Numbered from the stretch's first letter, positions 2,811 to 36,300 are shown. The stretch is DNA of 40,328 nucleotides from Candidatus Berkelbacteria bacterium (GCA_026397205.1 JAPLVH010000017.1:1-40328), one strand, 5' to 3'. Program-made: numbers and translations. The notes: a model not told the origin generated them from the sequence alone.

Positions 2811-2848
2811 TGGTGTGAAAATGGTGCTGGAGCACCATTTTCACACCA
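2811..2848. repeat. Palindrome family 1, copy a
   Basis: TGGTGTGAAAATGGTGCT-GG-AGCACCATTTTCACACCA; perfect 18 bp arms. Confidence 0.95.
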
Positions 2849-2892
2849 AAATGATAAAATAATTAGAGGATGAGAAATATAGGTGGTGAGAA

Positions 2893-3405
2893 ATGAAATA
2901 CAAAATTGTTTTACACAAAAGCAAATATTTTTCAGAATATCGTGAATTTTGCCAAAATTTGACAAAAATTCACAAAAAGAAACTCGATATTCATCATATT
3001 GGTAGTACGTCGGTGTCTGGTCTTGATGGAAAAGGGGTTATTGATGTTTTGATTGGGGTAAAAAATTGGCGAGAGTCGGAAGGCGTTATCAAATCGCTGA
3101 AAGGAATTGGGATAAAATACTGTTGGCCGAAAAATGGCGGGAGAATTTTTTTAAGCAACAGAAAAATAAATTCCCGCGAGGGTGATTTTCATATTCATCT
3201 TGTTCGCAGGGCGACAAAACAATACAAAAATTTCATCAGATTTAGAGATATTTTGCGCCAAGACGAATCAATTGCAAAAAAATACAAAAAAATCAAAGTT
3301 CGTGCGATAAAAACATCAGAGAATAGATTTTTCTACAAACATTTCAAAGGATTTTTTATTGAGTCAGTGCTTAAAAAAGAATTGTGTTTAAATTATTTGG
3401 TGTGA
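2893..3405 (+). CDS. GrpB/UPF0157 family nucleotidyltransferase-fold protein
   Basis: IHHIGSTSVSGLDGKGVIDVLIGV ... HIHLV ... FRDILR ... YKKIK motifs. Confidence 0.85.
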   Translation: MKYKIVLHKSKYFSEYREFCQNLTKIHKKKLDIHHIGSTSVSGLDGKGVIDVLIGVKNWRESEGVIKSLKGIGIKYCWPKNGGRIFLSNRKINSREGDFHIHLVRRATKQYKNFIRFRDILRQDESIAKKYKKIKVRAIKTSENRFFYKHFKGFFIESVLKKELCLNYLV

Positions 3406-3438
3406 AAATTATGCTCCAGCATAATTTTCACACCAAAT
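3395..3438. repeat. Palindrome family 1, copy b
   Basis: ATTTGGTGTGAAAATTATGCT-CC-AGCATAATTTTCACACCAAAT; perfect 21 bp arms; contains the GrpB stop codon. Confidence 0.95.
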
Positions 3439-3500
3439 TTCTCAGAAAACTATGGAATGTGATAAAATTAGAGTAGAATTTTTTGAAATACGAGACACCG

Positions 3501-4088
3501 ATGAAGAAATATCAAAAAGAAATTATCAAATTATCTGCCCGGGAACTGCTTTTGTCGTTTATTGATTTAGCATCACCGTTTTTCCAAGCTAGCCGAATTT
3601 ATCGCCAAGGCGCGAACAAATATATCAACGAGCGTCGAATTGAAAAAGCTGAGTTTTGGGACAAAATAAAATATCTCAAGCGCTCGGGTTACATCGAAAG
3701 ATTTCTTGACGGAAACGAGGAATATCACATGTTGACGCAGAAGGGCAGGGAAAAACTTGAGAAATTAAAATTTCAGGCAATAAAAATCAAGCGGCCGGAA
3801 AAATGGAACGGAAAATGGTGGCTGGTAATTTTTGATGTCCCGGACAAGAAAAAACAGGGGCGTGATTTGTTGCGAAAGAAATTGATATCGATTGATTTCG
3901 AAAAAATTCAGGAAAGTGTTTATGCCTATCCGTTCGAGTGTGCCGATGAAATTGATTTTATTGCTGGCAATTTGAATGTCGGCGAAAATGTTTTAATATT
4001 TATTGCTAATGCTATCAGGGGCGAAGAAGTGGTGATTGAAAAATTTCTCGACAAAAATATTTTGACTAAGAGAGATTTACAGAAATAA
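3501..4088 (+). CDS. wHTH + PaaX-central/Cas2-like domain protein (paralog 1)
   Basis: IKYLKRSGYIE..YHMLTQKG (winged helix) plus KWNGKWWLVIFDVP..RDLLRKKL..FEKIQESVY (Cas2-like ferredoxin fold). ATG 3501 aligns with the start of paralog 2. Confidence 0.85.
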   Translation: MKKYQKEIIKLSARELLLSFIDLASPFFQASRIYRQGANKYINERRIEKAEFWDKIKYLKRSGYIERFLDGNEEYHMLTQKGREKLEKLKFQAIKIKRPEKWNGKWWLVIFDVPDKKKQGRDLLRKKLISIDFEKIQESVYAYPFECADEIDFIAGNLNVGENVLIFIANAIRGEEVVIEKFLDKNILTKRDLQK

Positions 4089-4141
4089 AATTTAAGACAA
4101 GAAAAAAAGTTAAAAAAAGTAAATTCAGGGTTGGAAAAAGA

Positions 4142-4181
4142 AGTGTGTGAAAAGTTCGCTCCAGCGAACTTTTCACACACT
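4142..4181. repeat. Palindrome family 1, copy c
   Basis: AGTGTGTGAAAAGTTCGCT-CC-AGCGAACTTTTCACACACT; perfect 19 bp arms. Confidence 0.95.
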
Positions 4182-4263
4182 ATCATAATTAAAAAAGGCA
4201 ACCAGTGGTTGCCTTTGGATAAAACAGGACTTAAATTCGAGAAATAAACAATCAACTCTACTC

Positions 4264-5172
4264 TCACCGCCAGACGGCGAGGCCGTAACCGCTGAAGTTT
4301 CTAGCCGAATTAATGTCTCCGTCAACGACCCAAGACAAAATGTGTCCCTCTCTGGAAATCACAGTTATCCTTTTGTCGAGCGGTGTCACGACTCCTAGTC
4401 GTGAAAGCCGGGCGATTTGATCATTTTTGTCGAAGCTGAGAACTTTTCCAACGGCAGAGAAGAAAACCGGAAAGATTCTTTTGACTCCTCCTACAAAATA
4501 ATTTTCGTAAACAGTGATCATCGCTAGTATTCGTCCATCGGGCAAAAGTTGAACATCAAAAAGCTTCTGACCGTCCTGATGATTGGCGACAGCCGTTATA
4601 ATTCGCTCGCCGCTAGATAGGAGGTAAGCGATTAAGCGGCTCGGAAAGGGCTTTTTGGGATAGTGTTCTCGTGAGCCGTCATTTTCAACAACGTAAACAA
4701 ACGAATTTGTCGCGACCATCGCCGCGACATTTGTTGGACCGAATTTGGCAAGCAGCCGATAATTACTGCCGTCAATATCAATTTTGCAGAGATTGAATGT
4801 ATTGTCGCAGATTCCGATTCCGTCGTTGGTAATTTGGGCGAAGATAATTGATTTTCCGTCAGGGGCAACCGCAATATGGTCAACGCACCCACTGGTTGTT
4901 AGTTTCCGGACAAAATCGCCGTGAGCGTTGATGACGAATATATCATTGCCATTATTATCGTTCTTCAAAATTGCCAGGACTCCATTACTGATCCAACAAA
5001 TCTGAAGAACATCTTTGTTCATTGCTATTGGATATGGGTCTGAAAATCCGAAATTGTTAATGTACAGATCGTCATAGTTGCCGGCGCCCTTGACCAGATA
5101 GGCGATTTGTTCGGCAAAAAGCGGGAAAATCGAAAGCGAAAAAACCAGAACCACAGCCATCGCAAACTTCAT
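4264..5172 (-). CDS. Secreted TolB-like beta-propeller protein
   Basis: Signal peptide MKFAMAVVLVFSLSIFPLFA; repeats such as AVAPDGKSIIF, IDIDGSNYRLL, LLPDGRI; SD GGAGGT. Confidence 0.65.
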   Translation of the reverse strand: MKFAMAVVLVFSLSIFPLFAEQIAYLVKGAGNYDDLYINNFGFSDPYPIAMNKDVLQICWISNGVLAILKNDNNGNDIFVINAHGDFVRKLTTSGCVDHIAVAPDGKSIIFAQITNDGIGICDNTFNLCKIDIDGSNYRLLAKFGPTNVAAMVATNSFVYVVENDGSREHYPKKPFPSRLIAYLLSSGERIITAVANHQDGQKLFDVQLLPDGRILAMITVYENYFVGGVKRIFPVFFSAVGKVLSFDKNDQIARLSRLGVVTPLDKRITVISREGHILSWVVDGDINSARNFSGYGLAVWR

Positions 5173-5234
5173 CGTGGCACCTCCGAGTCAGCATTAAATT
5201 AATTATAGCAGAAATTGGGCAAAATTTAATTTTG

Positions 5235-5263
5235 TTGACTTTCAAAGATTAATTTGATATAAA
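5235..5263 (+). promoter_or_regulatory. sigma70 promoter
   Basis: TTGACT-17 bp-TATAAA, followed by a leader with AGGAGGT. Confidence 0.55.
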
Positions 5264-5306
5264 ATAAGAGATGTAAAGCTCGTACACAACTCAGGAGGTT
5301 CGGCTG

Positions 5307-6203
5307 ATGAGGTCATACAAGCCGTTGATTTTGGTCGGAATTGTTTTGGTCGCCACTACTGCTGGATATTTTGTCTGGAATAACAGTTACAGCAATGAAG
5401 TTTTTCGTCAGTGGAATAATCTTCAGACATCACTGACAGAGTTGAATTCATTCATTGATGGCAACCATGACTTTTGTGATATTGTTGCGAAAGTGTCAAT
5501 GATAAAAACTGCTGTTGATCAGCGAAAAAGTTACTTCGAGCGAAAGTCAGTTCCGTTTGGTCGCGGAGATTTCAACCGCACGTTTGTCAATTATCTGGAA
5601 AATGTTTCTGCTTGCCTCGGACTGATTTCAGATAACTGTAATAAGTGGGACGGGAAAATGTTGACGGATTTGAATCAGAAGACCCAAGCGCTTCATAAGT
5701 CGCAAAATGATTGCGCAAATTCTATCCACTATCTATCGAAAAAAGATGACATCTTCATGCAGATTCCAACAATCCTCAATCAAATGCACGAAAAACGATC
5801 GGCACCAACGCCGAAACACATTGTCGAAATTGTCTCTACAACATCCCCTGTGCTGGTGGACCAACAGGCATTTGGTTTTCGCAGTTCAGCGGTTGAAGAA
5901 ATGCGGATGATAATGAGAGAATATCTCCGAGATCGCGATTATTTCAACGCTACAGCGGGTAGTATACTAAGCGACTTAAATGTTTTCGGAGAGCGGTGCA
6001 TTGCAGATCGCTATGTTTTGATTCATCGACTTGAGAATCTAGATTTGCCGAATGAGTATTATCGAGAAACAGGGCAACTTTTCGTTTCTGGCATCAATGA
6101 TGCGATTGAAGCCATTCGTATCAAGTGTCGAACTGGTGATGGACATTCAGAAGCCGCACGCCGGGCAGCGGATAAGATTTGTCAAGTCCAAAAACGACTG
6201 TGA
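5307..6203 (+). CDS. Hypothetical helical protein with N-terminal membrane anchor
   Basis: 298 aa ORF, N-terminal hydrophobic stretch, strong SD, followed by a terminator. Confidence 0.7.
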   Translation: MRSYKPLILVGIVLVATTAGYFVWNNSYSNEVFRQWNNLQTSLTELNSFIDGNHDFCDIVAKVSMIKTAVDQRKSYFERKSVPFGRGDFNRTFVNYLENVSACLGLISDNCNKWDGKMLTDLNQKTQALHKSQNDCANSIHYLSKKDDIFMQIPTILNQMHEKRSAPTPKHIVEIVSTTSPVLVDQQAFGFRSSAVEEMRMIMREYLRDRDYFNATAGSILSDLNVFGERCIADRYVLIHRLENLDLPNEYYRETGQLFVSGINDAIEAIRIKCRTGDGHSEAARRAADKICQVQKRL

Positions 6204-6223
6204 ATATTGAAGGGGCTTATCTT

Positions 6224-6252
6224 GCCTTCGGTCTTGTGACCGAGGGTTTTTT
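6224..6252 (+). terminator. Intrinsic terminator
   Basis: CCTTCGGTC-TTGT-GACCGAGGG followed by T6. Confidence 0.8.
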
Positions 6253-6253
6253 G

Positions 6254-6282
6254 TTGATTTACAAGCAAAAATCTGCTATAAA
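6254..6282 (+). promoter_or_regulatory. sigma70 promoter
   Basis: TTGATT-17 bp-TATAAA with extended TG; same layout as 5235-5263. Confidence 0.5.
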
Positions 6283-6319
6283 ATAAGTGGTACCATGACA
6301 ACTCAGGGAGGTTGTGGAG

Positions 6320-6793
6320 ATGAAGATCAACTGGCTACTGGTTTTTACCACGGTTTTTTTGATGATGTCTCAAGTTTTCGCCGCTGATTCGCTAAGCACC
6401 TACAAATCCGCCGAATTCACAATTCGCTATCCTTCGAACTTTTGCGTTCAGCAAAGTCGTGATCGCGACGGCGCCTATTTCACGTCGCCAGACAAACGAG
6501 TGATTTTTATGGTCTATTCAACGACTATGATTACAATAGGGAATTATATGTGGAAACAAGCGCTACTCGAAGAAACCATTTCTTCCTCGACGAAAAATGG
6601 TCGGACTTATGTTTTCATCAAAGCGATTGATGGGTCGTATTGTCGCCAATATGTCGAAGTCAATGATGGGGTTTCGCCTTTCAGGGTATTCGGAATCCGT
6701 TATGTTTCAGCTGATGCCTATAAAAAGTATAAACCGCTATATGAAAAGTTCGTTGGGTCTTTTGTTGGGTCTGAAGATACCGGCGATCCCTAA
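6320..6793 (+). CDS. Secreted hypothetical protein (PsbP-like fold possible)
   Basis: Signal peptide ending VFA; YKSAEFTIRYPSNF and C-terminal YEKFVGSF resemble PsbP-like proteins; SD GGGAGG. Confidence 0.6.
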   Translation: MKINWLLVFTTVFLMMSQVFAADSLSTYKSAEFTIRYPSNFCVQQSRDRDGAYFTSPDKRVIFMVYSTTMITIGNYMWKQALLEETISSSTKNGRTYVFIKAIDGSYCRQYVEVNDGVSPFRVFGIRYVSADAYKKYKPLYEKFVGSFVGSEDTGDP

Positions 6794-6803
6794 GTCAATT
6801 TCC

Positions 6804-6833
6804 CCGTCTCACCCTTTAGCGAGGCGGTTTTTT
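6804..6833 (+). terminator. Intrinsic terminator
   Basis: CCGTCTC-loop-GAGGCGG followed by T6. Confidence 0.65.
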
Positions 6834-6871
6834 ATTGCAGAAATAGTGTTTTTTGGGTAAGATAACAAAAG

Positions 6872-6984
6872 AAAATCAAATATCAAAGATCAAAAATCAA
6901 AATGACAGATCAGAAAGTTAAAGATAAAATCCCGGCACGAAGTGCCGACCACAACTTTTCACTTTTCACTTTTAATTTTTAACT
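6872..6984 (+). repeat. Heptamer-arm element with central GRA hairpin, copy 1
   Basis: AAAAATC-type repeats, core AATCC-CGGCAC-GAA-GTGCCG-ACCA (6928-6951), then T-rich heptamers up to the yebC start. Confidence 0.85.
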
Positions 6985-6987
6985 GCC

Positions 6988-7719
6988 ATGTCCGGACACT
7001 CAAAGTGGGCGACGACAAAACATAAAAAAGCAATTGTTGATGCCAAGCGGTCAGCATCTTTTACAAAACTATCAAAAATTGTCACAATCGCCGCCAGAGG
7101 CGGCGGTGATCCGACGATGAATTTTTCCTTGCGACTGGCGATTGATCGGGCAAAAGCGGCCTCAATGCCGAAGGAAAATATCGAAAAGGCGATCAAACGC
7201 GGAACCGGTGAAATCGGCGGGGCGGCGATTGAAGAAATTGTTTACGAAGGATACGGTCCGGCCGGCATTGCGATCATCATCGTTTGCCTGACCGACAACC
7301 GCTTGCGGACGGTTTCCGAGATTCGTTCGATTTTCAACAAATTTGGCGGAACTTTGGCCGAAGCTGGCGGTGTCGCTTATCTTTTTGAAAAACGCGGGGA
7401 GATTAGCTTGTCTCGGCCAAAGGCCGATCGTCCTGTGGACGAAGCGGAGAAAATCGAAGAAAAAATTATTGACTCCGGCGCGCTCGATTTTGAGCTTGAG
7501 GATGATACTATATATATAGTATATACCGAGTTGACCGACTTACAGAAAGTTGCTAATTATTTCGTTGATGCCGGCATCAAGATTGAATCCTCAGACATCA
7601 TCTATCAACCAAAAACCAAAGTTCAAGTTCCGGAGGAAAAAATGCCGGCGGTGGAAAAGTTATTAAATGCACTTGAAGAATTAGACGATGTGTCAGAAGT
7701 TTTCAGTAATATTGAATAA
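6988..7719 (+). CDS. yebC: YebC/PmpR family protein
   Basis: MSGHSKWATTKHKK, YEGYGPAG, TDNRLRT, LEELDDVSEVFSN. Confidence 0.96.
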   Translation: MSGHSKWATTKHKKAIVDAKRSASFTKLSKIVTIAARGGGDPTMNFSLRLAIDRAKAASMPKENIEKAIKRGTGEIGGAAIEEIVYEGYGPAGIAIIIVCLTDNRLRTVSEIRSIFNKFGGTLAEAGGVAYLFEKRGEISLSRPKADRPVDEAEKIEEKIIDSGALDFELEDDTIYIVYTELTDLQKVANYFVDAGIKIESSDIIYQPKTKVQVPEEKMPAVEKLLNALEELDDVSEVFSNIE

Positions 7720-7721
7720 TT

Positions 7722-7854
7722 AAATCAAAAAGCAAATATCCCCACAGGGTCAGCTGAAGCTAGAAAAAATCAAAATGACAGATAAAAATGTAAAGAGAAT
7801 CCAGCTATGGAATGGCTACCACAATTTTGATCTTTGCATTTTAATTTTTGATCT
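7722..7854 (+). repeat. Heptamer-arm element, copy 2 (variant stem)
   Basis: AAAAAATCAAAATGACAGAT left arm; core AATCC-AGCTAT-GGA-ATGGCT-ACCA (7798-7821); TTTTGATCTTTGCATTTTAATTTTTGATCT right arm. Confidence 0.8.
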
Positions 7855-8367
7855 ATGAAAATATTAGGTATTGATCCCGGGACGGCAATTTGCGGCTGGG
7901 GTTTGATCGAATCGGACGGCCATGAGCCGCGGATTTTGAAGTGCGGGGTGATCACGACCAAAGCCAAGTCCCCAGATGCTGACCGGCTGGAGATTATTTA
8001 TGACAGCGTCTGTGATATAATTAAAAAGGAAAAACCGGAGGCGGTCGCCGTTGAACAATTATTCTTTTTCAAGAACCAAAAGACAGTGATGACAGTTTCC
8101 CAGACGCGAGGCGCGATTGTTTTGGCGGTTCAAAAATCCAGAACGCCGCTTTTCGAATATACTCCACTTCAAGTTAAACAAGCGGTTGTCGGTTATGGCC
8201 GGGCGGAGAAAAATCAGGTCCAGGAAATGGTAAAAGTCATATTGCATTTGAAAGAAATTCCCAAACCGGACGATGCGGCCGATGCACTGGCGATTGCGAT
8301 CTGTTGTTCGCAATCGCAAAAAAATAAGTCAAGAGCTTTTGGTGATTATTTTACAAATATAAAATAA
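7855..8367 (+). CDS. ruvC: Holliday junction resolvase RuvC
   Basis: ILGIDPG, AVEQLFF, YTPLQVKQAVVGYGRAEK, DDAADALAIA. Confidence 0.97.
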   Translation: MKILGIDPGTAICGWGLIESDGHEPRILKCGVITTKAKSPDADRLEIIYDSVCDIIKKEKPEAVAVEQLFFFKNQKTVMTVSQTRGAIVLAVQKSRTPLFEYTPLQVKQAVVGYGRAEKNQVQEMVKVILHLKEIPKPDDAADALAIAICCSQSQKNKSRAFGDYFTNIK

Positions 8368-8372
8368 TTTTT

Positions 8373-9101
8373 ATGAATAAAAAAATTGAATTAAACAAAA
8401 AAGAAATTGAAAGTATTTACAGAAAAATCGCCGAATTCCATAAAAAATATTTAAAACAATTTGGTGTCAAGCTACCAAAACTTTATAATTCAGAAAAAAA
8501 ATTTACTAAAGATGGTCTAACATTGGTCTATTTGGCTCAAAATTACCCAAATACTTCTGAGATTAGCAAAAAAGAATTGACAAAATTTATCAGGAGTTTT
8601 TATCCGGATACAAACGATGTGCAACAAGCACGGCATCTTGGCGCCCAGGCAGGATGGTGGATTGTGGCCGGCGGCAGAGACAATATTGTTCTACGGATTA
8701 AACGTGGAAACTATCAACTTTATACTTTAGAGCAACCTTATCCAGAATTTAAAAAAGGCCATAGGAAATCCGAAACTAGCGGATGGAAAGAATTAAAAGC
8801 GAGATACAACTATCGATGTGCAACTTGTGGATCACAAGAAAATAAACCACATTTTCATTGGCCGGCAACGAAAACAGTTTTACAAAAATCACATATGGAT
8901 CCGAATAAACCTTTGATAACAGGGAATATCCTTCCCCAATGTGAAAAATGTAATCGAGCCGACCGAAACAGATGGGTTTATGACGAAAAAGGTCGAGTGG
9001 TAAAATTGGCTGACGCAAATTTTGTTAGAAATTTTGACAATGAGGTGAGAAAAAAGATTTACAAAATATTATCCGAAGAATTTAAAGAGAACGGGTCATA
9101 A
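8373..9101 (+). CDS. HNH (beta-beta-alpha-metal) endonuclease, probable type II restriction enzyme
   Basis: CATCG ... KSHMDP ... QCEKCNR zinc/HNH motifs; adjacent to a DNA methyltransferase. Confidence 0.7.
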   Translation: MNKKIELNKKEIESIYRKIAEFHKKYLKQFGVKLPKLYNSEKKFTKDGLTLVYLAQNYPNTSEISKKELTKFIRSFYPDTNDVQQARHLGAQAGWWIVAGGRDNIVLRIKRGNYQLYTLEQPYPEFKKGHRKSETSGWKELKARYNYRCATCGSQENKPHFHWPATKTVLQKSHMDPNKPLITGNILPQCEKCNRADRNRWVYDEKGRVVKLADANFVRNFDNEVRKKIYKILSEEFKENGS

Positions 9102-23008: not shown

Positions 23009-24167
23009 TTTTGACTATAATTTGCCAAAGGAACTGATTGCCCAAGTTCCGGTTAGTCCGCGAGACAACTCGCGGCTTTTGGTTTATGAAAGTTGTGATG
23101 ATGAAATTGCTGACGAGAAATTTTTCAATCTAGGAAATTTTTTACGTGCTGGTGATTTAGTCGTTGTCAATAATTCAAAAGTGATGTCGGCGAGGATATT
23201 TGGCGCCAAACTGTCGGGTGGAAAAATTGAAATTTTACTTTTGGAAAAAGTCGGCGATAATTGGTCAGCTTTGGTTGGTGGAAAAATTAATGTTGGCGAA
23301 AAAATTTTCCTTGAAGAAAATTTTTTCGCCAACATTAATTCAAAATCTGGCAAAGAAGCAGTCATCAAATTTAATCTATCCGGTGAGGATTTTTGGCAGA
23401 AAATAAATCAAATCGGAATTATGCCACTTCCACCCTACATAGAAAAAAAAATCAAAATTCAAAATTCAAAAATCATAATTAAGGAAGATTTTTTCCGAAA
23501 AGAATATCAAACAGTATATGCGAAAAATTTGGGCTCGGCGGCGGCTCCGACAGCCGGCTTGCATTTCACAGAAGAATTAATCAAAGAATTAGAATCCGCC
23601 GGCATTAATTTTGCCAGCGTTGACTTGCATGTCGGGCTTGGAACTTTTTTGCCGATCGATGAGGAAAATATTAAATCAAAAAAGCTTCATCGAGAAAATT
23701 TTTCGATTCCGGCAGAAACGATTGCCAAAATTATTGAAACCAAAAAATCCGGCGGTCGAATTATCGCCGTCGGCACGACAACCGTCCGGGCGCTGGAATC
23801 TTTTTGGAAAGATCAAAAATTAAAAATCAAAGATCAAAATGATAAATCAAAAATCAAAAAGGATTTTTCCGGGTCGACTGACATTTTTATCCATCCCGGA
23901 TTTGATTTCAAAATTGTCGACGGGCTTATCACCAATTTTCACTTGCCAAAGTCAAGCTTGATGATGCTGGTAGCGGCATTTATTCAATATAAAGTGCTTG
24001 GTCGCCATTTTGAGCGGGGAAAGCGAGTCGAAGAATCCTTAGAAATATCTCGCGAACAGATTATTGGCGCTAATTTTGGCCGGCAAAAACTCCTCGAACT
24101 CTATAATTTGGCCATCAAAAATCAATATCGTTTTTACTCCTTTGGCGACGCAATTCTGATAGTTTAA
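22992..24167 (+). CDS. queA: SAM:tRNA ribosyltransferase-isomerase QueA, with repeat-derived insertions
   Basis: DFDYNLPKELIAQ, MPLPPYI, YQTVYA, AAPTAGLHFT, LHVGLGTF, AVGTTTVRALE, TNFHLPKSSL, YRFYSFGDA. Confidence 0.96.
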   Translation: MIKISDFDYNLPKELIAQVPVSPRDNSRLLVYESCDDEIADEKFFNLGNFLRAGDLVVVNNSKVMSARIFGAKLSGGKIEILLLEKVGDNWSALVGGKINVGEKIFLEENFFANINSKSGKEAVIKFNLSGEDFWQKINQIGIMPLPPYIEKKIKIQNSKIIIKEDFFRKEYQTVYAKNLGSAAAPTAGLHFTEELIKELESAGINFASVDLHVGLGTFLPIDEENIKSKKLHRENFSIPAETIAKIIETKKSGGRIIAVGTTTVRALESFWKDQKLKIKDQNDKSKIKKDFSGSTDIFIHPGFDFKIVDGLITNFHLPKSSLMMLVAAFIQYKVLGRHFERGKRVEESLEISREQIIGANFGRQKLLELYNLAIKNQYRFYSFGDAILIV

Positions 24168-24203: not shown

Positions 24204-24243
24204 TTTGTGTAATATACTTCCGATCGGAAGTATATTACACAAA
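24204..24243. repeat. Palindrome family 2, downstream copy
   Basis: TTTGTGTAATATACTTCCGA|TCGGAAGTATATTACACAAA; perfect 40 bp, no spacer. Confidence 0.96.
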
Positions 24244-24261: not shown

Positions 24262-24852
24262 CTAAAGATCTTTTTTGTTCAGGGTTCTATTTTTCATAAA
24301 TTTGTAAATAATTTCTTTTTCGCCTTGGATAATTTCAGCAATAAAAATTGTCACAGATTTCTCAACACCAAGCGATTTCGATAGCGTAGATATTTCTTCT
24401 GTGCAGGGAAAAGGAAAAATGTAAACACTTTTTTGTATTTTTATAAATCCCAGATTTTTCAGTTTTAGCCGCAAACTATCTCTCGAACTACGAAGTTTTT
24501 CTTTAATGTCAAATATTACAATTCTCCACATTTTATCCCACTTTTCAGGCCGTGGAATTTCTATTTTTGACGAAAATTCTTTCAATTTTTTAAATCCTAT
24601 TGGAGAAATCTCAACAAACTTTTCCTTGTTTTCTATGACGATTTTAATTGCTCCGATTTTTTTTAAATATTGTATCCGGTCGTTGATTTTTGTTTTGTCG
24701 TATCGATCATCTGCAAGATATTTTCGAATCGGTTGGCGATAAATTCGGCTTGATTCAAAGAATGGCCTAGCTGTTTTTTCTGCCGCTTCTACCAGAGTCA
24801 TCAACAGTTTAATTGATGTCAATTTGATTATTTCTTTCTTTTCTTCTCTCAT
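24262..24852 (-). CDS. wHTH + PaaX-central/Cas2-like domain protein (paralog 2)
   Basis: PFFESSRIYRQ (cf. PFFQASRIYRQ in paralog 1), IQYLKKIGAI, RPEKWDKMWRIVIFDI, LKNLGFIKIQKSVYIFP. Confidence 0.85.
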   Translation of the reverse strand: MREEKKEIIKLTSIKLLMTLVEAAEKTARPFFESSRIYRQPIRKYLADDRYDKTKINDRIQYLKKIGAIKIVIENKEKFVEISPIGFKKLKEFSSKIEIPRPEKWDKMWRIVIFDIKEKLRSSRDSLRLKLKNLGFIKIQKSVYIFPFPCTEEISTLSKSLGVEKSVTIFIAEIIQGEKEIIYKFMKNRTLNKKDL

Positions 24853-24872: not shown

Positions 24873-24914
24873 ATTTATGTAATACACTTCCGATCGGAAG
24901 TGTATTACATAAAT
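24873..24914. repeat. Palindrome family 2, upstream copy
   Basis: ATTTATGTAATACACTTCCGA|TCGGAAGTGTATTACATAAAT; perfect 42 bp. Confidence 0.96.
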
Positions 24915-25051: not shown

Positions 25052-25082
<31 letters not shown>

Positions 25083-25170
25083 TGTAAGATAGAAACAGGA
25101 TTTTATAATGTCTAATTTCAAATTACAAATGTTAAATAAATATTTGAGAAATAATTAATTGGGAGGAAAA

Positions 25171-30469: not shown

Positions 30470-30502
30470 CTCTGACCTCCTCGGACTTGGATTTGTACTC
30501 AA

Positions 30503-30595: not shown

Positions 30596-31633
30596 ATGGA
30601 CAAAATCAAAATGATTCTTGGGATTTTTTGGGCGTTTTTGAGACGGGTTGGTTTTTATTTCAAACTTGGATACATTAAAATTGTCTCCTTAATCAAAAAA
30701 ACTCGTCGTGGTGAGGCGATGGAAATTCATCCGCTGGTCGGGAAATATGCCAGCATTCTTTTTCGTCTTGTATTTGTTCTGACAATTTTGGTTTTTGTCG
30801 CCGAAATCGCTTTCGGCGTTGGGATTTATAAATACAAAAAATCTGATAGCACAACAAAAGCTTTTGCCAGATATATTCCATTTCCGGCGGCGGTTGTTCA
30901 GGGCCGAATTGTGACAATGAATGATTACTTTAAAAACCTGGCTTATATCGAGCAGTTTTACTCCAAAACTCAGCAGTCCGGTGTTGATTTGGCGGCGATC
31001 AGAACGAAAGTTATCGCCCAGCTGATCGACAACGAACTTCTGGCCAGCCAAGCGAAAAAGTATAATGTTACTGTTACCGATGCCGATGTCGAAAATGCCT
31101 ATTCCGAAGTCGTGACTCAAAACGGTGGCGAAGCCGAGGTGCAAAAAGTTCTGAATGATCTTTATGGACTTTCGATTCGCGATTTCAAACAGCTAATTTC
31201 CGACCAACTTTTGGAGCAAAAATTAACTGACGCCGTTCCGGTCCAGGTTCACGCTCAGCATATTTTAATTCGGGCCGATCAAAATGCCGACGCGGCAACA
31301 GTTGCCGCCGCCAAAGCGAAAATTGATAAAATTTATGCCGATGTCAATGCTGGCGCTGATTTTTCCGATCAAGCAAAAAAGTTAAGCGAAGACACCGGCT
31401 CGGCGTCAAACGGCGGCGATTTGGGCTTTTTCGCCCGTGGCCAAATGGACACGGACTTTGAAAACGCCGCATTCTCGACGCCAGTTGTTCAGGTTTCAGC
31501 GCCATTTCGATCTCAATTCGGCTGGCACATCGTCAAAGTTTTAGAGAAAAAAGGTTTTGTTGACTTGAGTTTTGATAATTGGCTCGCCTCTCTCCGCAAG
31601 GACTCAATAATTTTCCAGTTGCTCAAGGTCTAA
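30596..31633 (+). CDS. prsA: PrsA/SurA-type parvulin peptidyl-prolyl isomerase
   Basis: VHAQHILI, SEDTGSASNGGDLGFF, FENAAF, SQFGWHIVKV. Confidence 0.88.
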   Translation: MDKIKMILGIFWAFLRRVGFYFKLGYIKIVSLIKKTRRGEAMEIHPLVGKYASILFRLVFVLTILVFVAEIAFGVGIYKYKKSDSTTKAFARYIPFPAAVVQGRIVTMNDYFKNLAYIEQFYSKTQQSGVDLAAIRTKVIAQLIDNELLASQAKKYNVTVTDADVENAYSEVVTQNGGEAEVQKVLNDLYGLSIRDFKQLISDQLLEQKLTDAVPVQVHAQHILIRADQNADAATVAAAKAKIDKIYADVNAGADFSDQAKKLSEDTGSASNGGDLGFFARGQMDTDFENAAFSTPVVQVSAPFRSQFGWHIVKVLEKKGFVDLSFDNWLASLRKDSIIFQLLKV

Positions 31634-31663
31634 GTTGTCTGTTTGCTATCCTTAATTTTCCTT

Positions 31664-31688
31664 TGTCATCCTGAATTTATTTTAGGAT
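31664..31688. repeat. TGTCAT-type REP-like repeat
   Basis: TGTCATCCTGAATTTATTTTAGGAT; related to 32595 and 37320. Confidence 0.65.
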
Positions 31689-31707
31689 ACAGTTTTCTGT
31701 CAGCCTG

Positions 31708-32580
31708 TTAATTTTTCCACCACTTTTTTCCATCAGCTGAAATTGAAAAATCAACTGAGCCGTTTTGGTCGGTGCGGTAAATATCGGCGCCGACTTTCGA
31801 CAGGGCGTCCAAAACCTCTTTGTGCGGAAAGCCGTAGGAGTTTCCGGCGCCACAGGAAATCACCGCAACGCGCGGCAAAATTATGCCGGCAATTTCATCT
31901 GTCATACCGGTTTTCGAACCGTGATGCGAATCTTTCAAATAATCAATATTTTCAATGTCACTTTTGTTGTTTGCGATAACTTGTTGCCAGGCGTCGGTTT
32001 GCAAATCGCCGGTAAGTAGCGCCGAAAAAATTCCATAAGTAAATTTAAAAACCTCGGAGGTGTCGTTCGGATCGTTGGAATAAGCGACAACATTGTCGCC
32101 CGGCCAGAGAAATTTGATAATACCAGAGCCAAAAACTTTTTCCTCGTTGCCGATTCGTGGCACATGAATCGGAATATTTTTTTCTTTGGCAATCTGGAGA
32201 AAATTTTTATAAACCGAACTGGTATATTCCATTCCATTGTAGTCAATCTTGTCAACTTTATAGCGAGAAAGAACTTCAACCAAACCGGTCACATGATCTG
32301 AATGTGGATGGGTTAAAATGACTTCTTCGATTTCCCGATCCTCAATTGGCATAAATTTCGCCAGTTCCGACAGAACCTTATCATCCGGTCCGCCGTCAAC
32401 CAAAATTTGTTCACTGCCCTTTTCGATCAAAATCGAATCACCCTGGCCGACATCCAGGGTGACCAGGTGGAGATTTTGGTCTGGTTCCTTGAAATATACC
32501 AACCAGACGGTGATTGCCAGGGCGGCCAGAAAAACCAAGAGCCAATATTTCAAATTTTCAATAAATTTGCTTCGGTACAT
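31708..32580 (-). CDS. ComEC-associated metallo-beta-lactamase-fold protein
   Basis: LDVGQGDS, LVDGG, THPHSDH, TGD, HHGSK, NSYGFPH, RTDQNG. Confidence 0.92.
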   Translation of the reverse strand: MYRSKFIENLKYWLLVFLAALAITVWLVYFKEPDQNLHLVTLDVGQGDSILIEKGSEQILVDGGPDDKVLSELAKFMPIEDREIEEVILTHPHSDHVTGLVEVLSRYKVDKIDYNGMEYTSSVYKNFLQIAKEKNIPIHVPRIGNEEKVFGSGIIKFLWPGDNVVAYSNDPNDTSEVFKFTYGIFSALLTGDLQTDAWQQVIANNKSDIENIDYLKDSHHGSKTGMTDEIAGIILPRVAVISCGAGNSYGFPHKEVLDALSKVGADIYRTDQNGSVDFSISADGKKWWKN

Positions 32581-32594
32581 TTTGAAATTTAATT

Positions 32595-32652
32595 TGTCAT
32601 CCTAAAATTTTTTCAGGATCTCGCGGGATTCCGAAACGGGTTCGGAATGACA
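32595..32652. repeat. Inverted pair of TGTCAT-type repeats
   Basis: TGTCATCCTAAAATTTTTTCAGGATC...GATTCCGAAACGGGTTCGGAATGACA; encodes the comEC C-terminus and stop. Confidence 0.75.
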
Positions 32653-34141
32653 CAATGTTAATAATTTTGCGCCAAAAAACCAGTAACAATAAAATAATAA
32701 TATATACCAAAGTAAATACCATTTGCCAATTTTTTCCGACTGCAAAAGAGGAAAAAGGCAGAGAGGAACAGTATTTTGCTGCCAGGAGTATATACTTTAA
32801 CGGGAGATAAGAAATTAAAAATGCCAGATGTCCGACTCCTGGAAGTAAAAAATAAATTATTGTTGAGAGAAAAACAAAGAGCATTGTTGCCGGAACTATC
32901 GGCAAAACCAAAACATTTGTTAGCGGCGCGACAATTGACAGCCGGCCGAAAGTTGATAAAAGGAGTGGCAAAACGACAACTTGGGCCGACAAAGTTTCGG
33001 ATATTGCCCGGCTTGCGAAGTTTGGTAACCAACGAAAAATTTTTCGTTCGAAAATTTTTTCGATTTTGCCCGAGAAAAAAACCAAACCAAAAAAGGCCAG
33101 AAACGAGAGCTGAAATCCGGAATCGTAGCGCAAAACAAAAGGATTTATCAGGATCATAATCGCCGCCGCTAGCAAAAGCAAATTTGTCATATCGGCGCGG
33201 CGACCGATCGTTCCGCCGAAAGCAATAATCAGTGAAACTATCGCCGCTCGAACAACACTAGCGGCGGCGCCGGTTAAAGCGACGAAACCGAGAATCAAAA
33301 TTGTCGAAAGAATTAAATTTGCTCGCCTTGAAATCCAGCCGGTTTCAACCAGAAAAACCGAAAGCGCGGCAATAATAATTGTAATATTATAGCCGGAAAG
33401 CGCAATAACATGAGTGATGCCGGAGGAGTTAAATTGATTTATTATCTCCTGCGAAAAACCCTGTTTCGAGCCGATTAGAACGCCGACGCCAAGAGAACTT
33501 TCCGGTTCAGGCAAGTTTTTTTGACAGGCGATTTCGAATTTTTTTCGCCAAGAATATACTATCGCTAAGATTTTGTTGCCGTTATTTTTCGAAATAAGAT
33601 CAATTTTCGGATTTTTTACTGTCGCCACAACGCCGTAACGTTTTAAATAATCAACCCAATCAAAATCACTGGAGTTTGTCGGTTTTTCGAGTGCGCCGTC
33701 AACCTGAATTTTTTCGCCGTAAAAATAATTCGGGAACTCGGAGGTCTGAATTTGTAAATTCACCTCATGACCGAAGTCGGAAGTTGTGAGGAAAAATTTC
33801 TGGCTGTTACTCCCGATATCGGGATAATTTGAAATCAGACCAGAAAAAGTTTTTTCCTGACTAAAGGGTAAATCGAGATTTTCCAAATTGTTGTTGCGAA
33901 AGGAAAAGAGAAAAATGCCAAGAAAAAATATCGAGAGGCAAATTATCGAGATTAATACGGAGTAATTTCGCCGCGCCAAAAAGTATATTCCAAATGCCAA
34001 GAGCAGAAATAAAATTGAAATAGAATATACCAAAGTATATTTCAAATCGAAAAAAGTCGAAGCAAAAACGCCGGCGATAAAAGCCGCTAAAATCAGGGTC
34101 AAAATTCGAAAGGCCGGAATTTTTCTTGATTTTTTCACCAT
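32597..34141 (-). CDS. comEC: ComEC/Rec2 competence channel (OB + competence domain)
   Basis: GITHVIALSGYN, SVVRAAI, GFQLSFLA, ETLSAQ, PLTNVLV. Confidence 0.93.
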   Translation of the reverse strand: MVKKSRKIPAFRILTLILAAFIAGVFASTFFDLKYTLVYSISILFLLLAFGIYFLARRNYSVLISIICLSIFFLGIFLFSFRNNNLENLDLPFSQEKTFSGLISNYPDIGSNSQKFFLTTSDFGHEVNLQIQTSEFPNYFYGEKIQVDGALEKPTNSSDFDWVDYLKRYGVVATVKNPKIDLISKNNGNKILAIVYSWRKKFEIACQKNLPEPESSLGVGVLIGSKQGFSQEIINQFNSSGITHVIALSGYNITIIIAALSVFLVETGWISRRANLILSTILILGFVALTGAAASVVRAAIVSLIIAFGGTIGRRADMTNLLLLAAAIMILINPFVLRYDSGFQLSFLAFFGLVFFSGKIEKIFERKIFRWLPNFASRAISETLSAQVVVLPLLLSTFGRLSIVAPLTNVLVLPIVPATMLFVFLSTIIYFLLPGVGHLAFLISYLPLKYILLAAKYCSSLPFSSFAVGKNWQMVFTLVYIIILLLLVFWRKIINIVSFRTRFGIPRDPEKILG

Positions 34142-34163
34142 TTTTTACTATTATACATTTAGA

Positions 34164-34628
34164 ATGGCCAATGATCAAAAGAAAAAATTTAAGGAATTGG
34201 AAGCGAAAATAACGGAACTGACCGCCGGCTGGCAGAGAACGCAGGCCGATTTTATTAATTTTAAAAAGAATGTTGCTGACGACCGAGTTAAATTGATAAA
34301 ATCTGCCGGTGGCGATATTGTTTCACAACTTTTGCCGGTTCTTGACCACTTTCAGTTGGCGGCGAAGCATATACCAAAAAATCTGATTAATGATAATTGG
34401 GCACTCGGAATCAAACAAATTGAGAAACAATTTGAGGCGATTTTGTTTGAAAACGGTTTGGAACGAATCGAATCGGTCGGTCAGGAATTTGATCCGGAAT
34501 TACATGAAGCGATTGAGGAAGTTGAAGTTGCTGGTAATAAAGCCGGGGAAATTGTTGAGGAGATTATTGCCGGTTACAAATTCGGCGGCGAGGTAGTCAG
34601 ACCGGCGCGGGTGAAGGTGGCAAAATAA
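34164..34628 (+). CDS. grpE: Nucleotide exchange factor GrpE
   Basis: RTQADFINFKK, LLPVLDHF, FDPELHEA, GYKFGGEVVRPARVKV. Confidence 0.96.
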   Translation: MANDQKKKFKELEAKITELTAGWQRTQADFINFKKNVADDRVKLIKSAGGDIVSQLLPVLDHFQLAAKHIPKNLINDNWALGIKQIEKQFEAILFENGLERIESVGQEFDPELHEAIEEVEVAGNKAGEIVEEIIAGYKFGGEVVRPARVKVAK

Positions 34629-34716
34629 AATGTAAGCCCACGGATTTGGACACCCCCACTTCGCCCTTCGGGCTACGAGGGGCAAGCTGAATTAACACGA
34701 CGGAATCAAATACAAA

Positions 34717-35607
34717 ATGCAAAATCAAATCAAAAACAAATTAGTGATGGTAACCGGTGCGACTTCTGGGATCGGGAAAGAAGCGGCGAAGATGTTGGCG
34801 AGTGACGGCGCCAGGGTTATCATCGTCGGCAGAAATCAAGAAAAATGCCAGCAAACGGTCAAAGAAATCATCACCGAAACAAAAAATAAAAATCTTGAAT
34901 ATTTGTTGGCGGACTTCCAATATCTTGGCGAAATAAGATTATTGGCGGAGAAGTTTCATACAAAGTATGACAAATTGGATGTTCTAATAAATAATGCCGG
35001 CGTCTATCTAAAACGTCGAGAAACTACTGCTGACGGTCGCGAACTTTCTTTTTCGGTAAATTATTTGGCACCGTTTTTTTTGACGAATTTACTGCTCCCG
35101 GCGCTGAAAAAATCCGACAGCGCCAGAATTATAAATGTTTCATCGCTTTCACATCTCGGAGCAAAAATTGATTTTGATGATATATTCAGTGAGAAATCAA
35201 ACCAACATCCGAAGTTTGCTTATCGCCGGTCGAAATTAGCTTTGATAATGTTTACATACGAATTAGCTCGACAACTTAAAAATTCAAATATTACCGTCAA
35301 TGCGGTTTGTCCTGGCGGTGTGGCGACAGCACTTTGGAAAACCAACAACGATTTGCAAACGAAAGCGACGCGATTAATCGTTCCGCTTTTGAAAACTCCC
35401 CAGCAAGCGGCTGGACTTTTGGTTTATCTCGCCGAGTCGCCGGAAGCGAATAATATCAGCGGAAAATTTTTTGCTCTGAAAAAGCACTCCCGTTTTCGAA
35501 ATTACAATTACAAAAATACAATCTCAAAATCATCGCCAGAATCTTATATTCTCCCCGATCAAAAAAAACTTTGGCAAGTTTCCAAAGAACTCGTCGGGTT
35601 CGGTTGA
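34717..35607 (+). CDS. Short-chain dehydrogenase/reductase (retinol-DH-like)
   Basis: TGATSGIG, LINNAG, NVSS, YRRSK, VCPGGVAT. Confidence 0.93.
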   Translation: MQNQIKNKLVMVTGATSGIGKEAAKMLASDGARVIIVGRNQEKCQQTVKEIITETKNKNLEYLLADFQYLGEIRLLAEKFHTKYDKLDVLINNAGVYLKRRETTADGRELSFSVNYLAPFFLTNLLLPALKKSDSARIINVSSLSHLGAKIDFDDIFSEKSNQHPKFAYRRSKLALIMFTYELARQLKNSNITVNAVCPGGVATALWKTNNDLQTKATRLIVPLLKTPQQAAGLLVYLAESPEANNISGKFFALKKHSRFRNYNYKNTISKSSPESYILPDQKKLWQVSKELVGFG

Positions 35608-35652
35608 TTTTTCGGATGTATTTCCCTCATTTTTGCATTAAAGTGTAACACC

Positions 35653-35690
35653 TAATTCAGATATTGACCGATCGGTCAATATCTGAATTA
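35653..35690. repeat. Palindrome family 3, downstream copy
   Basis: TAATTCAGATATTGACCGA|TCGGTCAATATCTGAATTA; perfect 38 bp; includes the gene's TAA stop. Confidence 0.96.
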
Positions 35691-36230
35691 TTTATGTCGT
35701 TTTCTGAATAGATTATCTAAGTGTTCTTCAATATTACTCTTTGCAATGATGAAATATGCGACGTATTCTCTAATCTCCAATTCATCGATAATCAGATCGA
35801 TTTCATCTGCCTTTATGTATTGACAAACCCACAAACTTTTTTGCAATTGTTTGAATCCAATTCTTTTTAGCGATCGGCAAAATTGCCTGCGTTTTATATT
35901 GTAATTTTCCGGAATGTCGTAAGAGATTATCCTAAGTCGTCCATCAACCTCGAGATTTTTTGGGCTCTCAAGATTTTTAATCTTACCTTTCACAGTTAAT
36001 CGTACGCTTAAGTTGCAGTTTTGTTCTTTGATTTCGATATATCCTGTACGTTTTAAATTTCGCAAGTATTGAATAAATTTATCACCGAGAAAATCTTCGC
36101 CAGATTCCATTTGTCTTTTCAGACCTTCTTGGTCTAGAAATCCACCGATTATTGCTTCAGGTGTCCGGGCGATTGCCGCCAAAATTGTCCAAGTTATTTC
36201 ACCAAATGCTTGTTTTGTTTCTTTTTTCAT
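35688..36230 (-). CDS. wHTH + PaaX-central/Cas2-like domain protein (paralog 3)
   Basis: LRNLKRTGYIE..VRLTVKGK, DGRLRIISYDIPE..RRQFCRSLKRIGFKQLQKSLWV. Confidence 0.85.
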   Translation of the reverse strand: MKKETKQAFGEITWTILAAIARTPEAIIGGFLDQEGLKRQMESGEDFLGDKFIQYLRNLKRTGYIEIKEQNCNLSVRLTVKGKIKNLESPKNLEVDGRLRIISYDIPENYNIKRRQFCRSLKRIGFKQLQKSLWVCQYIKADEIDLIIDELEIREYVAYFIIAKSNIEEHLDNLFRKRHK

Positions 36231-36236
36231 ATTTCA

Positions 36237-36265
36237 AGTATATAATTTTTGGAAATATTTTTCAA
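36237..36265 (-). promoter_or_regulatory. Leaderless sigma70 promoter of paralog 3; -35 overlaps the palindrome end
   Basis: Minus strand TTGAAA-17 bp-TATACT-6 nt-ATG. Confidence 0.6.
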
Positions 36266-36300
36266 TTCAGATATTGACCGATCGGTCAATATCTGAATTG
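36263..36300. repeat. Palindrome family 3, upstream copy
   Basis: CAATTCAGATATTGACCGA|TCGGTCAATATCTGAATTG; perfect 38 bp. Confidence 0.96.

Follow-up and report, generated by a model that had tools for sequence, protein, structure and literature searches.

Genes for short PaaX-like proteins between private palindromes in Candidatus Berkelbacteria: candidate self-clamping repressors

Closest described systems

PaaX-type regulators combine a winged helix with a dimerisation domain of the Cas2 fold (E. coli PaaX, PDB 8A39; the PaaX-like 3L09 and Rv0674, 3KFW). In the review PMC9493321, E. coli PaaX is described as a repressor of its own promoter, with an inverted-repeat operator, TGATTC-N27-GAATCA, that spans 39 bp. 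The window studied here, namely the whole stretch of 40,328 nucleotides from an ultra-small member of the Patescibacteria, a Candidatus Berkelbacteria bacterium (GCA_026397205.1 JAPLVH010000017.1:1-40328), encodes three proteins of this same architecture, each from a gene lying between copies of its own palindrome. In size and place these palindromes, putative operators, fit the E. coli precedent. The premise of the original prediction that ordinary operators are shorter is thus to be dropped, a span of about 40 bp being ordinary for this protein family.

E. coli PaaX is the best match of the family both in fold and in Pfam. All three open reading frames translate cleanly, and P0001, P0002 and P0003 match PF20803 (PaaX_M) with E values of 2.4e-18, 2.8e-23 and 8.6e-14 (66.5, 82.2 and 51.8 bits, cut-off 24). 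In structure comparison 8a39 ranks first (E 2.1e-6), ahead of VapD and Cas2, with Foldseek returning the Cas2-fold structures 3exc, 6jhz and 5zyf at probability 0.97-1.0. Several features nevertheless separate these proteins from PaaX. They count 180-196 residues against 305-316 for the PaaX chain of 8a39, and PaaX_C (PF08223, the C-terminal effector/ligand domain) has no match in the three proteins nor anywhere in the genome. Their scores against the TIGR02277 PaaX equivalog (35.6, 33.2 and 16.1 bits) lie far under the curated cut-off of 264.55, and no paa genes were found. Moreover, a second site stands at the 3′ end of the gene, a position for which we know of no PaaX example, and up to 15 paralogs with private sites occur in genomes of less than 1 Mb.

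With Cas2 and VapD the family shares the ferredoxin-like fold, the Asp of the first beta strand, the Q-x-S motif and a homodimer formed through the same face, here in a model. The retention of a Cas2/VapD-type Asp, as originally claimed, is borne out: the Asp of the (F/Y)D(I/V) motif (D115) is invariant across 65 aligned family members, as are the Cas2-type Gln and Ser, whereas the alignment of E. coli PaaX has a 3-residue gap across the FDI motif and no Asp there. Matches to Cas2 profiles are weak, cover only about 40 residues and are confined to the N-terminal half of the models (Pfam CRISPR_Cas2, 23.9, 24.8 and 20.6 bits, cut-off 23.8; TIGR01573, 23.2, 28.6 and 21.0 bits, cut-off 24.5). The homodimer model of a PaaX-like paralog scored 0.57 against 0.00 for the best control, a mark that 20 of 30 solved homodimers attain, as does 1 of 23 monomers, and this pass may reflect likeness to the Cas2 and PaaX dimers already solved. 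Its contacts were 100% consistent between runs (pLDDT 78), with a predicted interface at residues 109-115, 139-143 and 167-177. Unlike Cas2 and VapD, the proteins carry a fused winged helix, and the genome (95% complete) yielded no match to cas1 and, in a crude 21-mer scan, 0 candidate CRISPR-like arrays.

Other resemblances concern the layout rather than the protein. As in REP/RAYT (REPIN-RAYT) systems, a gene present in single copy lies between palindromic repeats of its own, more of which occur in spacers, often at gene 3′ ends, and gene and repeat diverge together. However, the protein is not a HUH/Y1 transposase (Y1_Tnp gave no match in the paralogs), the sites are perfect zero-loop palindromes, and each paralog has only 1-6 orphans; the genome's single Y1 gene is located elsewhere, with its own, different inverted repeats. 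Insertion sequences likewise hold a gene of some 0.6 kb, for a DNA-binding domain with a nuclease-like fold, between two probably bound copies; in contrast to them, each end here is a whole palindrome and not one arm, identical copies and known transposase chemistry are absent, and no target duplication was seen. Integron cassettes (ORF plus attC) share a palindromic, hairpin-forming site directly past the stop codon, and the order of the first locus, palindrome-GrpB-palindrome-PaaX-like gene-palindrome, makes a similar short row, but there is no adjacent integrase and no array, and the perfect sites here are each private to the protein encoded with them; the sole tyrosine recombinase seen sits on another small contig. 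Finally, the repressors of lac, gal and deo loop DNA by means of a second operator within or past the gene. Two operators a few hundred bp apart for one dimer-forming repressor are common to both designs, yet the second site here lies past the stop of the regulator's own gene, and the centre-to-centre distance shows no significant helical phasing (p 0.07-0.09). In the literature, no description of such a self-bracketed layout was found.

The three loci of the window

The seven perfect-armed palindromes of the original prediction are all present where it had placed them (Table 1), and across the whole window they are the only perfect palindromes with arms of at least 12 and a loop of at most 2. 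Dinucleotide-shuffled versions of the window (n=100) contained 0.03 on average and 1 at most. Arms measure 18-21 in family 1, which has a 2-nt core that is not palindromic, 20-21 in family 2 and 19 in family 3. Folded as single strands, the seven reach -15 to -21 kcal/mol (z -7.8 to -10.4). That differences between copies are mirrored in the other arm proved correct within the window, and each of the three genes is indeed bracketed; one family-1 copy, on the other hand, brackets the neighbouring GrpB gene, a candidate for cargo under joint regulation.

Table 1. Palindromes and genes of the three loci, with positions counted from the first nucleotide of the window
Feature	Position	Strand	Remarks
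Family-1 palindrome upstream of GrpB gene	2811..2848		arms 18; flipped core, CTGGAG (CTCCAG in the other two copies)
GrpB-family gene between two family-1 palindromes	2893..3405	+	Pfam GrpB E 3e-29
Family-1 palindrome, 5′ copy of paralog 1	3395..3438		
Paralog 1 (P0001, 195 aa)	3501..4088	+	winged helix and PaaX_M/Cas2-fold domain
Family-1 palindrome, 3′ copy of paralog 1	4142..4181		53 bp beyond stop
Family-2 palindrome, 3′ copy of paralog 2	24204..24243		18 bp beyond stop, convergent spacer with queA
Paralog 2 (P0002, 196 aa)	24262..24852	-	
Family-2 palindrome, 5′ copy of paralog 2	24873..24914		20 bp ahead of start
Family-3 palindrome, 3′ copy of paralog 3	35653..35690		3 bp overlap with stop codon
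Paralog 3 (P0003, 180 aa)	35688..36230	-	
Family-3 palindrome, 5′ copy of paralog 3	36263..36300		in divergent spacer
Divergent gene, no known family	36452..37234	+	candidate target

The 5′ copies lie on promoter-like hexamers. In particular, the sequence TTCTCA-18-TAAAAT (3439-3468) abuts the 5′ palindrome of paralog 1, and the family-3 5′ palindrome overlaps the -35 of a promoter-like site on the minus strand (36265-36237). A minus-strand TATAAT (24918-24913), read directly from the sequence and absent from the promoter-scan listing, overlaps the distal edge of the family-2 5′ palindrome. As for terminators, 4 of the 7 palindromes fit a loose terminator pattern on one strand and 3 do not. 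Ordinary short GC-rich terminators adjoin several of them, such as the hairpin at 4194-4216, which is separate from and beyond the family-1 3′ palindrome.

One case resembles a regulon. Contig C14 holds a paralog of the divergent gene of locus 3 with an identical family-3 palindrome upstream (42 bp, 100%), an orphan copy embedded in 293 bp with 84% identity between the two loci. In general, the genes beside relatives' paralogs are not conserved, which suggests that the only target of most paralogs is their own gene. For a regulator to have no evident sites except those at either end of its own gene is unusual.

Spread of the bracket and evolution of the sites

The three genes are members of a large family of short PaaX-like proteins in Patescibacteria. 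The units of the original prediction are real, yet not confined to the window. The source genome carries 9 paralogs, 23-78% identical to one another. A cognate palindrome or quasi-palindrome lies directly 3′ of the stop codon in 9 of 9 and at the promoter in 8 of 9, and 11 palindromes adjoin the nine genes against an expectation of 0.17 (Poisson p 5e-17). Paired sites were equally sought in the flanks of homologs: a shared site of about 40 bp stands at both gene ends for 59 of 66 paralogs in genomes of the same order, and elsewhere in the phylum one shared site brackets 16 of 28 loci. The private-palindrome bracket is a trait of the gene family. The site centres lie at median distances of 38 bp upstream of the start codon and 36 bp downstream of the stop codon. 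Paralog number ranges from 0 to 15 per genome, the latter reached in a genome of 0.7 Mb. A genome without any family member has 2 palindromes with arms of at least 18 in 394 kb; the source genome has 39 in 822 kb. In a public protein library the family amounts to 6,643 clusters at 50% identity (4,934 with E <= 1e-10), named in the sources only 'hypothetical', 'PaaX family' or 'Cas2'. Very few regulators are recognisable in Patescibacteria, and this family may be one of their main DNA-binding families.

Sites are private to each paralog and, as had been proposed for testing, track the protein tree: site similarity correlates with protein similarity (Mantel r 0.25; 0 of 2000 permutations as high). 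Identity between the two copies of one locus (0.62-0.91) is mostly above that between orthologs, and the two copies evolve in concert. Perfect arms, in contrast, are no general feature, as they occur in 27 of 118 sites family-wide and are a trait of the source genome. Between the two copies of a locus, 39 mirrored changes were counted against about 8 expected, along with 162 single-arm changes. The dozens of natural protein-site pairs provide material for learning how PaaX-type dimers read DNA.

Autorepression and its alternatives

The bracket, the correlation between proteins and sites, the concerted copies and the scarcity of palindromes in the genome devoid of the family together support well, if indirectly, the predicted recognition, by each protein, of its cognate palindrome. 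Of the two mechanisms put forward originally, an autoregulatory clamp is the better fit, because the 5′ copies sit on promoter-like hexamers. In other words, the paralogs would be self-clamping homodimeric repressors of their own genes, the reading that we prefer, though we regard it as about evenly poised between right and wrong. Specifically, a protein with an N-terminal winged helix, a Cas2-fold domain forming the dimer and no ligand-binding C-domain would read, as a homodimer, a private inverted-repeat site of about 40 bp, similar in span to the E. coli PaaX operator and present both at its own promoter and just beyond its stop codon. A dimer at the 5′ site would block RNA polymerase, resulting in autorepression. 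At the 3′ site, a dimer could either pair with the first one, looping out the gene of about 630 bp, or act as a roadblock that shields the usually antisense-oriented gene from its convergent neighbour. Extra copies elsewhere would be secondary sites born by copying. What the analysis shows directly is the family, the fold, the dimer model, the bracket, the co-variation and the overlap with promoters; that the proteins bind and repress, and what the 3′ site does, we infer. A further question testable in this family is whether the Cas2 fold is a dimer scaffold only or still acts on nucleic acid.

Self-clamping leaves unexplained the copies in promoter-less spacers, the orphan family F4, the unrelated paralogs in one spacer and the invariant Asp, and these points keep a REP/RAYT-like selfish cassette alive. 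A selfish or domesticated cassette, also akin to a minimal insertion sequence, would copy gene plus palindromes, or palindromes alone, to new spacers, with the winged helix seeing the palindromes as element ends and the Asp-bearing Cas2 fold putatively nicking or processing them. We hold it unlikely, though with a real chance. In keeping with it, the gene lies between its own repeats, solo copies are scattered in spacers (about 36 further long palindromes lie away from paralogs in the source genome), and copy number and target genes are not conserved. F4, the most abundant orphan family, has 11-13 copies (11 within 3 mismatches, 7 identical), occurs in the source genome alone and lacks a cognate gene in the assembly; together with F1 (8 copies), it shows sharp ends in unrelated flanks, and both have therefore spread by copying. 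Occupancy of spacers varies too, which lends mobility partial support: in 5 of 12 genomes of the family, paralogs from two deep clades (split support 100/97) sit in the spacer 3′ of queA, and the rsmH/dnaJ spacer holds palindrome-gene-palindrome in one genome (G002) and a lone palindrome in the source genome. The downstream neighbour is convergent at 42 of 64 loci against 34% expected. Against mobility, every paralog is single-copy and diverged (the closest pair in the source genome is 78% identical), giving no sign of recent gene transposition, and the clade-2 paralogs beside queA look vertically inherited. Domain-profile searches of the paralogs found no DDE, HUH, Ser or Tyr recombinase or transposase domain; we know of no Cas2 that joins DNA; and no chimeric palindromes, such as a crossover at the centre would yield, occur among the copies compared. 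Sequencing reads ill suited to the question showed neither circular nor empty-site junctions. That a winged helix and a Cas2 fold, without known transposase chemistry, nick or process a private palindrome in such an element is distinctly doubtful. If confirmed, the palindrome would be duplicated around the insert in the way that acquisition of a spacer duplicates a CRISPR repeat, solo copies would be seeded genome-wide as REPINs are by RAYTs, and a free-living relative of the Cas2 lineage would act on palindromic repeats without Cas1. Processing, and not mere binding, would accordingly represent a second, independent REP/RAYT-like system and link Cas2 with palindromic repeats outside CRISPR.

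Another possibility, improbable in our judgement, is a boundary or insulator system, in which the main job of the bound palindromes would be to block transcription or organise the chromosome from within very short spacers, and the pair flanking the gene would couple protein level to site occupancy. Consistent with this, although coding sequence fills about 90% of the genome, 43 of the 47 long palindromes lie between genes, 11 of 30 intergenic orphans fall in convergent, promoter-less spacers, which make up 17% of spacers overall (p 0.008), several F4 copies stand just past ordinary terminator hairpins, outside transcription units, and the family profile matches weakly the centromere-binding winged-helix proteins TubR and AspA (E 0.0015-0.009). 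However, orphans are few in most relatives, 9 of 16 palindromes in the 295 kb sampled of genome G004 adjoin a paralog, and a general architectural role would hardly call for nine to fifteen separate specificities in one genome.

Control at the RNA level is quite improbable. It would have the protein bind transcribed hairpins of 18-20 bp at both mRNA ends, and its La-like winged helix and RRM-like fold set mRNA stability or translation. The excess of mirrored, pair-preserving changes, which dimer binding to duplex DNA does not predict, argues for it, as do the strong hairpin folds, the low-probability match to La (0.2-0.3) and the family-2 -10-like hexamer upstream of its palindrome, which would then be transcribed. 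By contrast, the centres are themselves palindromic, the perfect copies show no G-T pairs, the predicted family-1 promoter is downstream of its palindrome, F4 copies lie past terminators, and single-arm changes exceed mirrored ones. Moreover, template switching in quasi-palindromes can produce mirrored changes without selection (cf. the abstract of bioRxiv 10.1101/2023.04.19.537475).

Lastly, that ordinary bidirectional terminators or assembly fold-backs unrelated to the protein account for the pattern is scarcely credible, despite the four terminator-like palindromes, since it is contradicted by the adjacency statistics and by the recurrence of the bracket in dozens of independent genomes of the order and phylum, by site families private to each paralog, by the ordinary GC-rich terminators standing beside the palindromes, and by the position of the window copies inside the contig with unique flanks. 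An 80-bp palindrome at the start of contig C15 does resemble a fold-back.

Gene-bracketing palindromes and their spread

The seven palindromes of the window lie where the original prediction had placed them. Their arms, 18-21 bases long, are perfect, and they are the only ones there with an arm of at least 12 and a loop of at most 2 (mean 0.03 in 100 dinucleotide shuffles). Families 1 to 3 flank the genes of three short PaaX-like proteins, paralogs 1 to 3. The bracketing described for family 1 holds in that the gene does lie between palindromes, but the copy at 2811 stands upstream of a GrpB gene, so that the layout is pal-GrpB-pal-gene-pal; the asymmetric 2-nt core of this family is flipped in orientation in the same copy. 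A search of the window against Rfam gave no match, and PHROGs likewise returned nothing.

The whole genome (821,591 bp, 29 contigs, 42% G+C) holds nine paralogs. A palindrome (arm of at least 18, at most one mismatch) is found 0-53 bp 3′ of the stop codon in eight of them, while the ninth, on contig C16, is flanked on either side by imperfect copies of one site, of which C22 carries a perfect solo copy. A 5′ copy is likewise present in 8/9, those of the C21, C13 and C26 paralogs being recovered by looser matching, and the remaining gene has lost its 5′ end to a contig end. Perfect palindromes no more than 120 bp from a paralog number 11, against 0.17 expected. With the arm set at 16 or more the genome has 47 palindromes, 36 of which are away from any paralog; among these, most paralog-specific families are represented by solo copies, and a further family, named F4, also occurs.

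The protein family is present in 33 of the 41 genomes of the order, with 0-15 copies each, and in 46 of 201 sampled across the phylum; a search with paralog 2 alone returned three loci, labelled Candidatus Saccharibacteria or Patescibacteria. The family comprises 6,643 clusters at 50% identity (E ≤ 0.001), and among the best 150 of these nearly all lengths are 130-250 aa. Atlas clusters come from several Patescibacteria phyla and bear the names hypothetical, PaaX family or Cas2. A strict search recovers a gene-end palindrome for 34/71 distinct proteins (arm of at least 13, at most one mismatch). When the 5′ flank of each gene was compared with its 3′ flank for shared sequence, 59 of 66 genes in the order scored above the 99th percentile of a control set of 264 mismatched pairs, 53 of them above the control maximum; the bracket is also found in 16 of 28 loci from other families and classes. 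Measured from the called start and from the stop, the site centres lie at medians of 38 bp upstream and 36 bp downstream, respectively, and 632 bp apart, with no significant helical phasing of the 5′-3′ distance. The perfection of the arms, true of all seven copies in the window, does not extend to the family: sites perfect over 18 pairs number just 27/118, most having 12-17 pairs, and perfect arms are therefore a trait of this genome rather than of the family.

The proposal that the protein tracks its palindrome fits a correlation between protein and arm identity (Mantel r 0.25, a value reached in 0 of 2000 permutations). As gene and site are inherited together, this correlation points to constraint, not to binding. 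Copies within a locus are 0.62-0.91 identical, mostly above the identity between orthologs' copies in other genera. Palindromes with an arm of at least 18 number 39 in 822 kb in this genome, 9 in 295 kb in G004, another of the compared genomes, and 2 in 394 kb in G018, the sole genome without the family sampled as a negative.

Coordinates of the features discussed (window positions are those of contig C8)
Feature	Contig	Position	Strand
Paralog 1 (P0001)	C8, window	3501-4088	plus
Paralog 2 (P0002)	C8, window	24262-24852	minus
Paralog 3 (P0003)	C8, window	35688-36230	minus
Promoter/leader region of the gene at 36452-37234	C8, window	36319-36608	
Counterpart of this region	C14	about 6660-6950	reverse
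F4 copy	C8	44629-44666	
Other F4 copies	C6, C12, C13, C14, C15, C22, C25, C27, C28		
F5 and F4 palindromes in one spacer	C14	10716-10824	
80-bp palindrome centred on an F4 copy	C15	1-80	
IS200-like Y1 transposase gene	C21	24199-24969	
Solo Y1-type inverted repeat	C8, window	2607-2641	
Hairpin within queA	C8, window	23285-23340	
ACT/TAC triplet repeats	C8, window	about 25052-25083	
Contig ends with the ~140-bp repeat (at least 7)	C9, C10, C12, C22, C23, C25, C29		

Protein fold and putative autorepression

PaaX_M is a strong match for the three proteins; Cas2 models match them weakly, along roughly 40 residues, and a PADLOC search returned partial Cas2 models only. PaaX_C is absent both from the three proteins and from the genome. 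The reported lack of cas1 and of an array can be extended, in that no Cas1 match occurs even genome-wide and a crude scan found no CRISPR-like array. An AlphaFold model from 65 homologs (pLDDT 83.5) has E. coli PaaX as its top structural match (8a39, E 2.1e-6), followed by VapD and Cas2. Asp115, Arg124, Gln140 and Ser142 are invariant across the 65 sequences; the alignment with E. coli PaaX has a 3-residue gap across the FDI motif, so that PaaX has no Asp aligned at this point. A homodimer model reached a score of 0.57 (best control 0.00), a mark attained by 20/30 solved homodimers and 1/23 monomers, with contacts in 100% agreement between runs and a pLDDT of 78. The modelled interface maps to strands of the Cas2 fold, and the invariant residues are part of it. 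Since Cas2 and PaaX dimers have already been solved, this pass may only mirror likeness to known dimers.

In its predicted mode of working the family comes closest to PaaX, yet it lacks the C-domain and paa genes and scores far under the membership cut-off; with Cas2 it has the fold in common but not the genomic context. According to a review (PMC9493321), the E. coli PaaX operator, TGATTC-N27-GAATCA, spans 39 bp, and at its own promoter PaaX brings about repression by obstructing RNA polymerase. This span equals the 36-44 bp seen here, which, for this protein family, contradicts the notion that ordinary operators are shorter. A paper on TTHA0973 (PMC6651687) was set aside, as its regulator is of TetR type and not a PaaX homolog. 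Promoter-like hexamers adjoin the 5′ copies of families 1 and 3; a TATAAT adjoining the 5′ copy of family 2 was read from the sequence and is absent from the listing of the promoter scan. The gene divergent from paralog 3 has a paralog on C14 with a solo family-3 copy upstream, and this palindrome is 100% identical to the family-3 copy inside an 84%-identical stretch. On the basis of PaaX operator span and autorepression, the 5′ hexamers and the C14 copy, we favour the reading of these proteins as putative homodimeric autorepressors. The conserved 3′ copy would then act as a looping partner or, alternatively, as a roadblock. In their genome neighbourhoods, the PaaX-like genes stand antisense to the adjoining genes unusually often: with spacer types taken from a crude ORF caller, convergence with the downstream neighbour occurs in 42/64 loci, against 34% expected, and 25/64 genes are divergent and convergent at once. 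Accounts of short PaaX-like proteins bracketed by palindromes were not found in the literature searched, supplements aside, and we file the family, which has expanded enormously in Patescibacteria, as putative repressors of the PaaX type whose operator is doubled and brackets the gene.

The promoter/leader region of the gene divergent from paralog 3 has a strong TTGACA-17-TAAAAT and a run of eight G. Its identity with the C14 counterpart is 84% over 293 bp, and the product of the gene adjoining the latter is only about 33% identical to that of 36452-37234.

Orphan palindromes and the possibility of a selfish cassette

A minority chance is left to a REP/RAYT-like or IS-like interpretation, that is, that the palindrome-bracketed gene is a new kind of selfish cassette. 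The F4 palindrome (TCCCTCAC...; TCCCTCACTTTGATACGCTAGC...) has 11 copies within three mismatches plus two looser ones; no cognate paralog was found in the assembly, and F4 occurs in 0/11 relatives of the family. Scans of metagenome contigs gave 0 matches for F4 and 0 for the family-1 pattern. F4 and F1 must have spread by copying, because within each family the copies are nearly the same and end sharply where unrelated flanks begin. Such copies keep the cassette interpretation alive, as do several other observations. Intergenic orphans fall in convergent spacers in 11/30 cases (p 0.008; spacer types derive from a crude ORF caller), several F4 copies standing just past ordinary terminators, and neighbouring genes are not conserved, none having turned up next to relatives. 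A paralog occupies the spacer 3′ of queA in 5/12 genomes of the family, and these paralogs belong to two clades parted at the deepest split of the tree. The rsmH/dnaJ spacer has pal-gene-pal in G002, a compared genome, versus a lone F4 here. Finally, changes between the two copies of a locus are mirrored and pair-preserving in 39 cases (about 8 expected) and single-arm in 162; template switching in quasi-palindromes could yield such an excess without selection. Against the cassette interpretation, near-identical paralog pairs are lacking and known recombinase chemistry is absent.

F4 is framed by outer GRTT/AAYC boxes, set off from it by an unmirrored spacer of 3 nt, and on contig C28 (3 kb) one copy has a gene for a large serine recombinase as its neighbour. 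The perfect 80-bp palindrome at the start of C15 differs from the internal copies in that it probably arose as an assembly fold-back. F5 and F4 palindromes 33 bp apart in a single C14 spacer recall the clustering of REP elements. The one IS200-like Y1 transposase gene of the genome encodes 217 aa (Pfam E 3.7e-20) and stands between inverted repeats of 35 nt that start with TAGGGGACGGTTCTCTTTTGA. Solo copies number four, and the one in the window precedes the first family-1 palindrome by about 170 bp. Gene and repeats resemble an ordinary REP/RAYT-like or IS200-like system in its own right.

Read coverage and other repeats

The stretch was found in 6 DNA sequencing runs from 2 studies, with no RNA run among those listed. 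The read-assembled contigs are short, and the listed pieces end within family-3 palindromes (35682, 36275); none bridges a palindrome, which is neutral on fold-backs, circles and empty sites. Listed read joints have short sides of 20-39 bases resembling other organisms or repeats. Downstream or upstream reads aside, the intergenic spacer that separates paralog 2 from its neighbour carries roughly ten ACT/TAC triplets, a stretch skipped as a repeat in the read mapping.

Extra paralog fragments on C25 and C10 were dismissed, as they match a multi-copy ~140-bp repeat, ending ...GGCGACAGCGCC, that had entered the search profile via the truncated C22 paralog. This repeat stands in place of the 5′ part of that paralog, a gene start follows it on C10, and flanks diverge immediately past it; it probably represents one end of a repeated element on which the assembly breaks. 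Three further groups of contig ends are listed alongside it. Within the queA coding region lies an A/T-rich 56-nt hairpin (arms 25, loop 6), similar to one inside queA of G002, and QueA is 392 aa long here versus about 350-377 aa in relatives.
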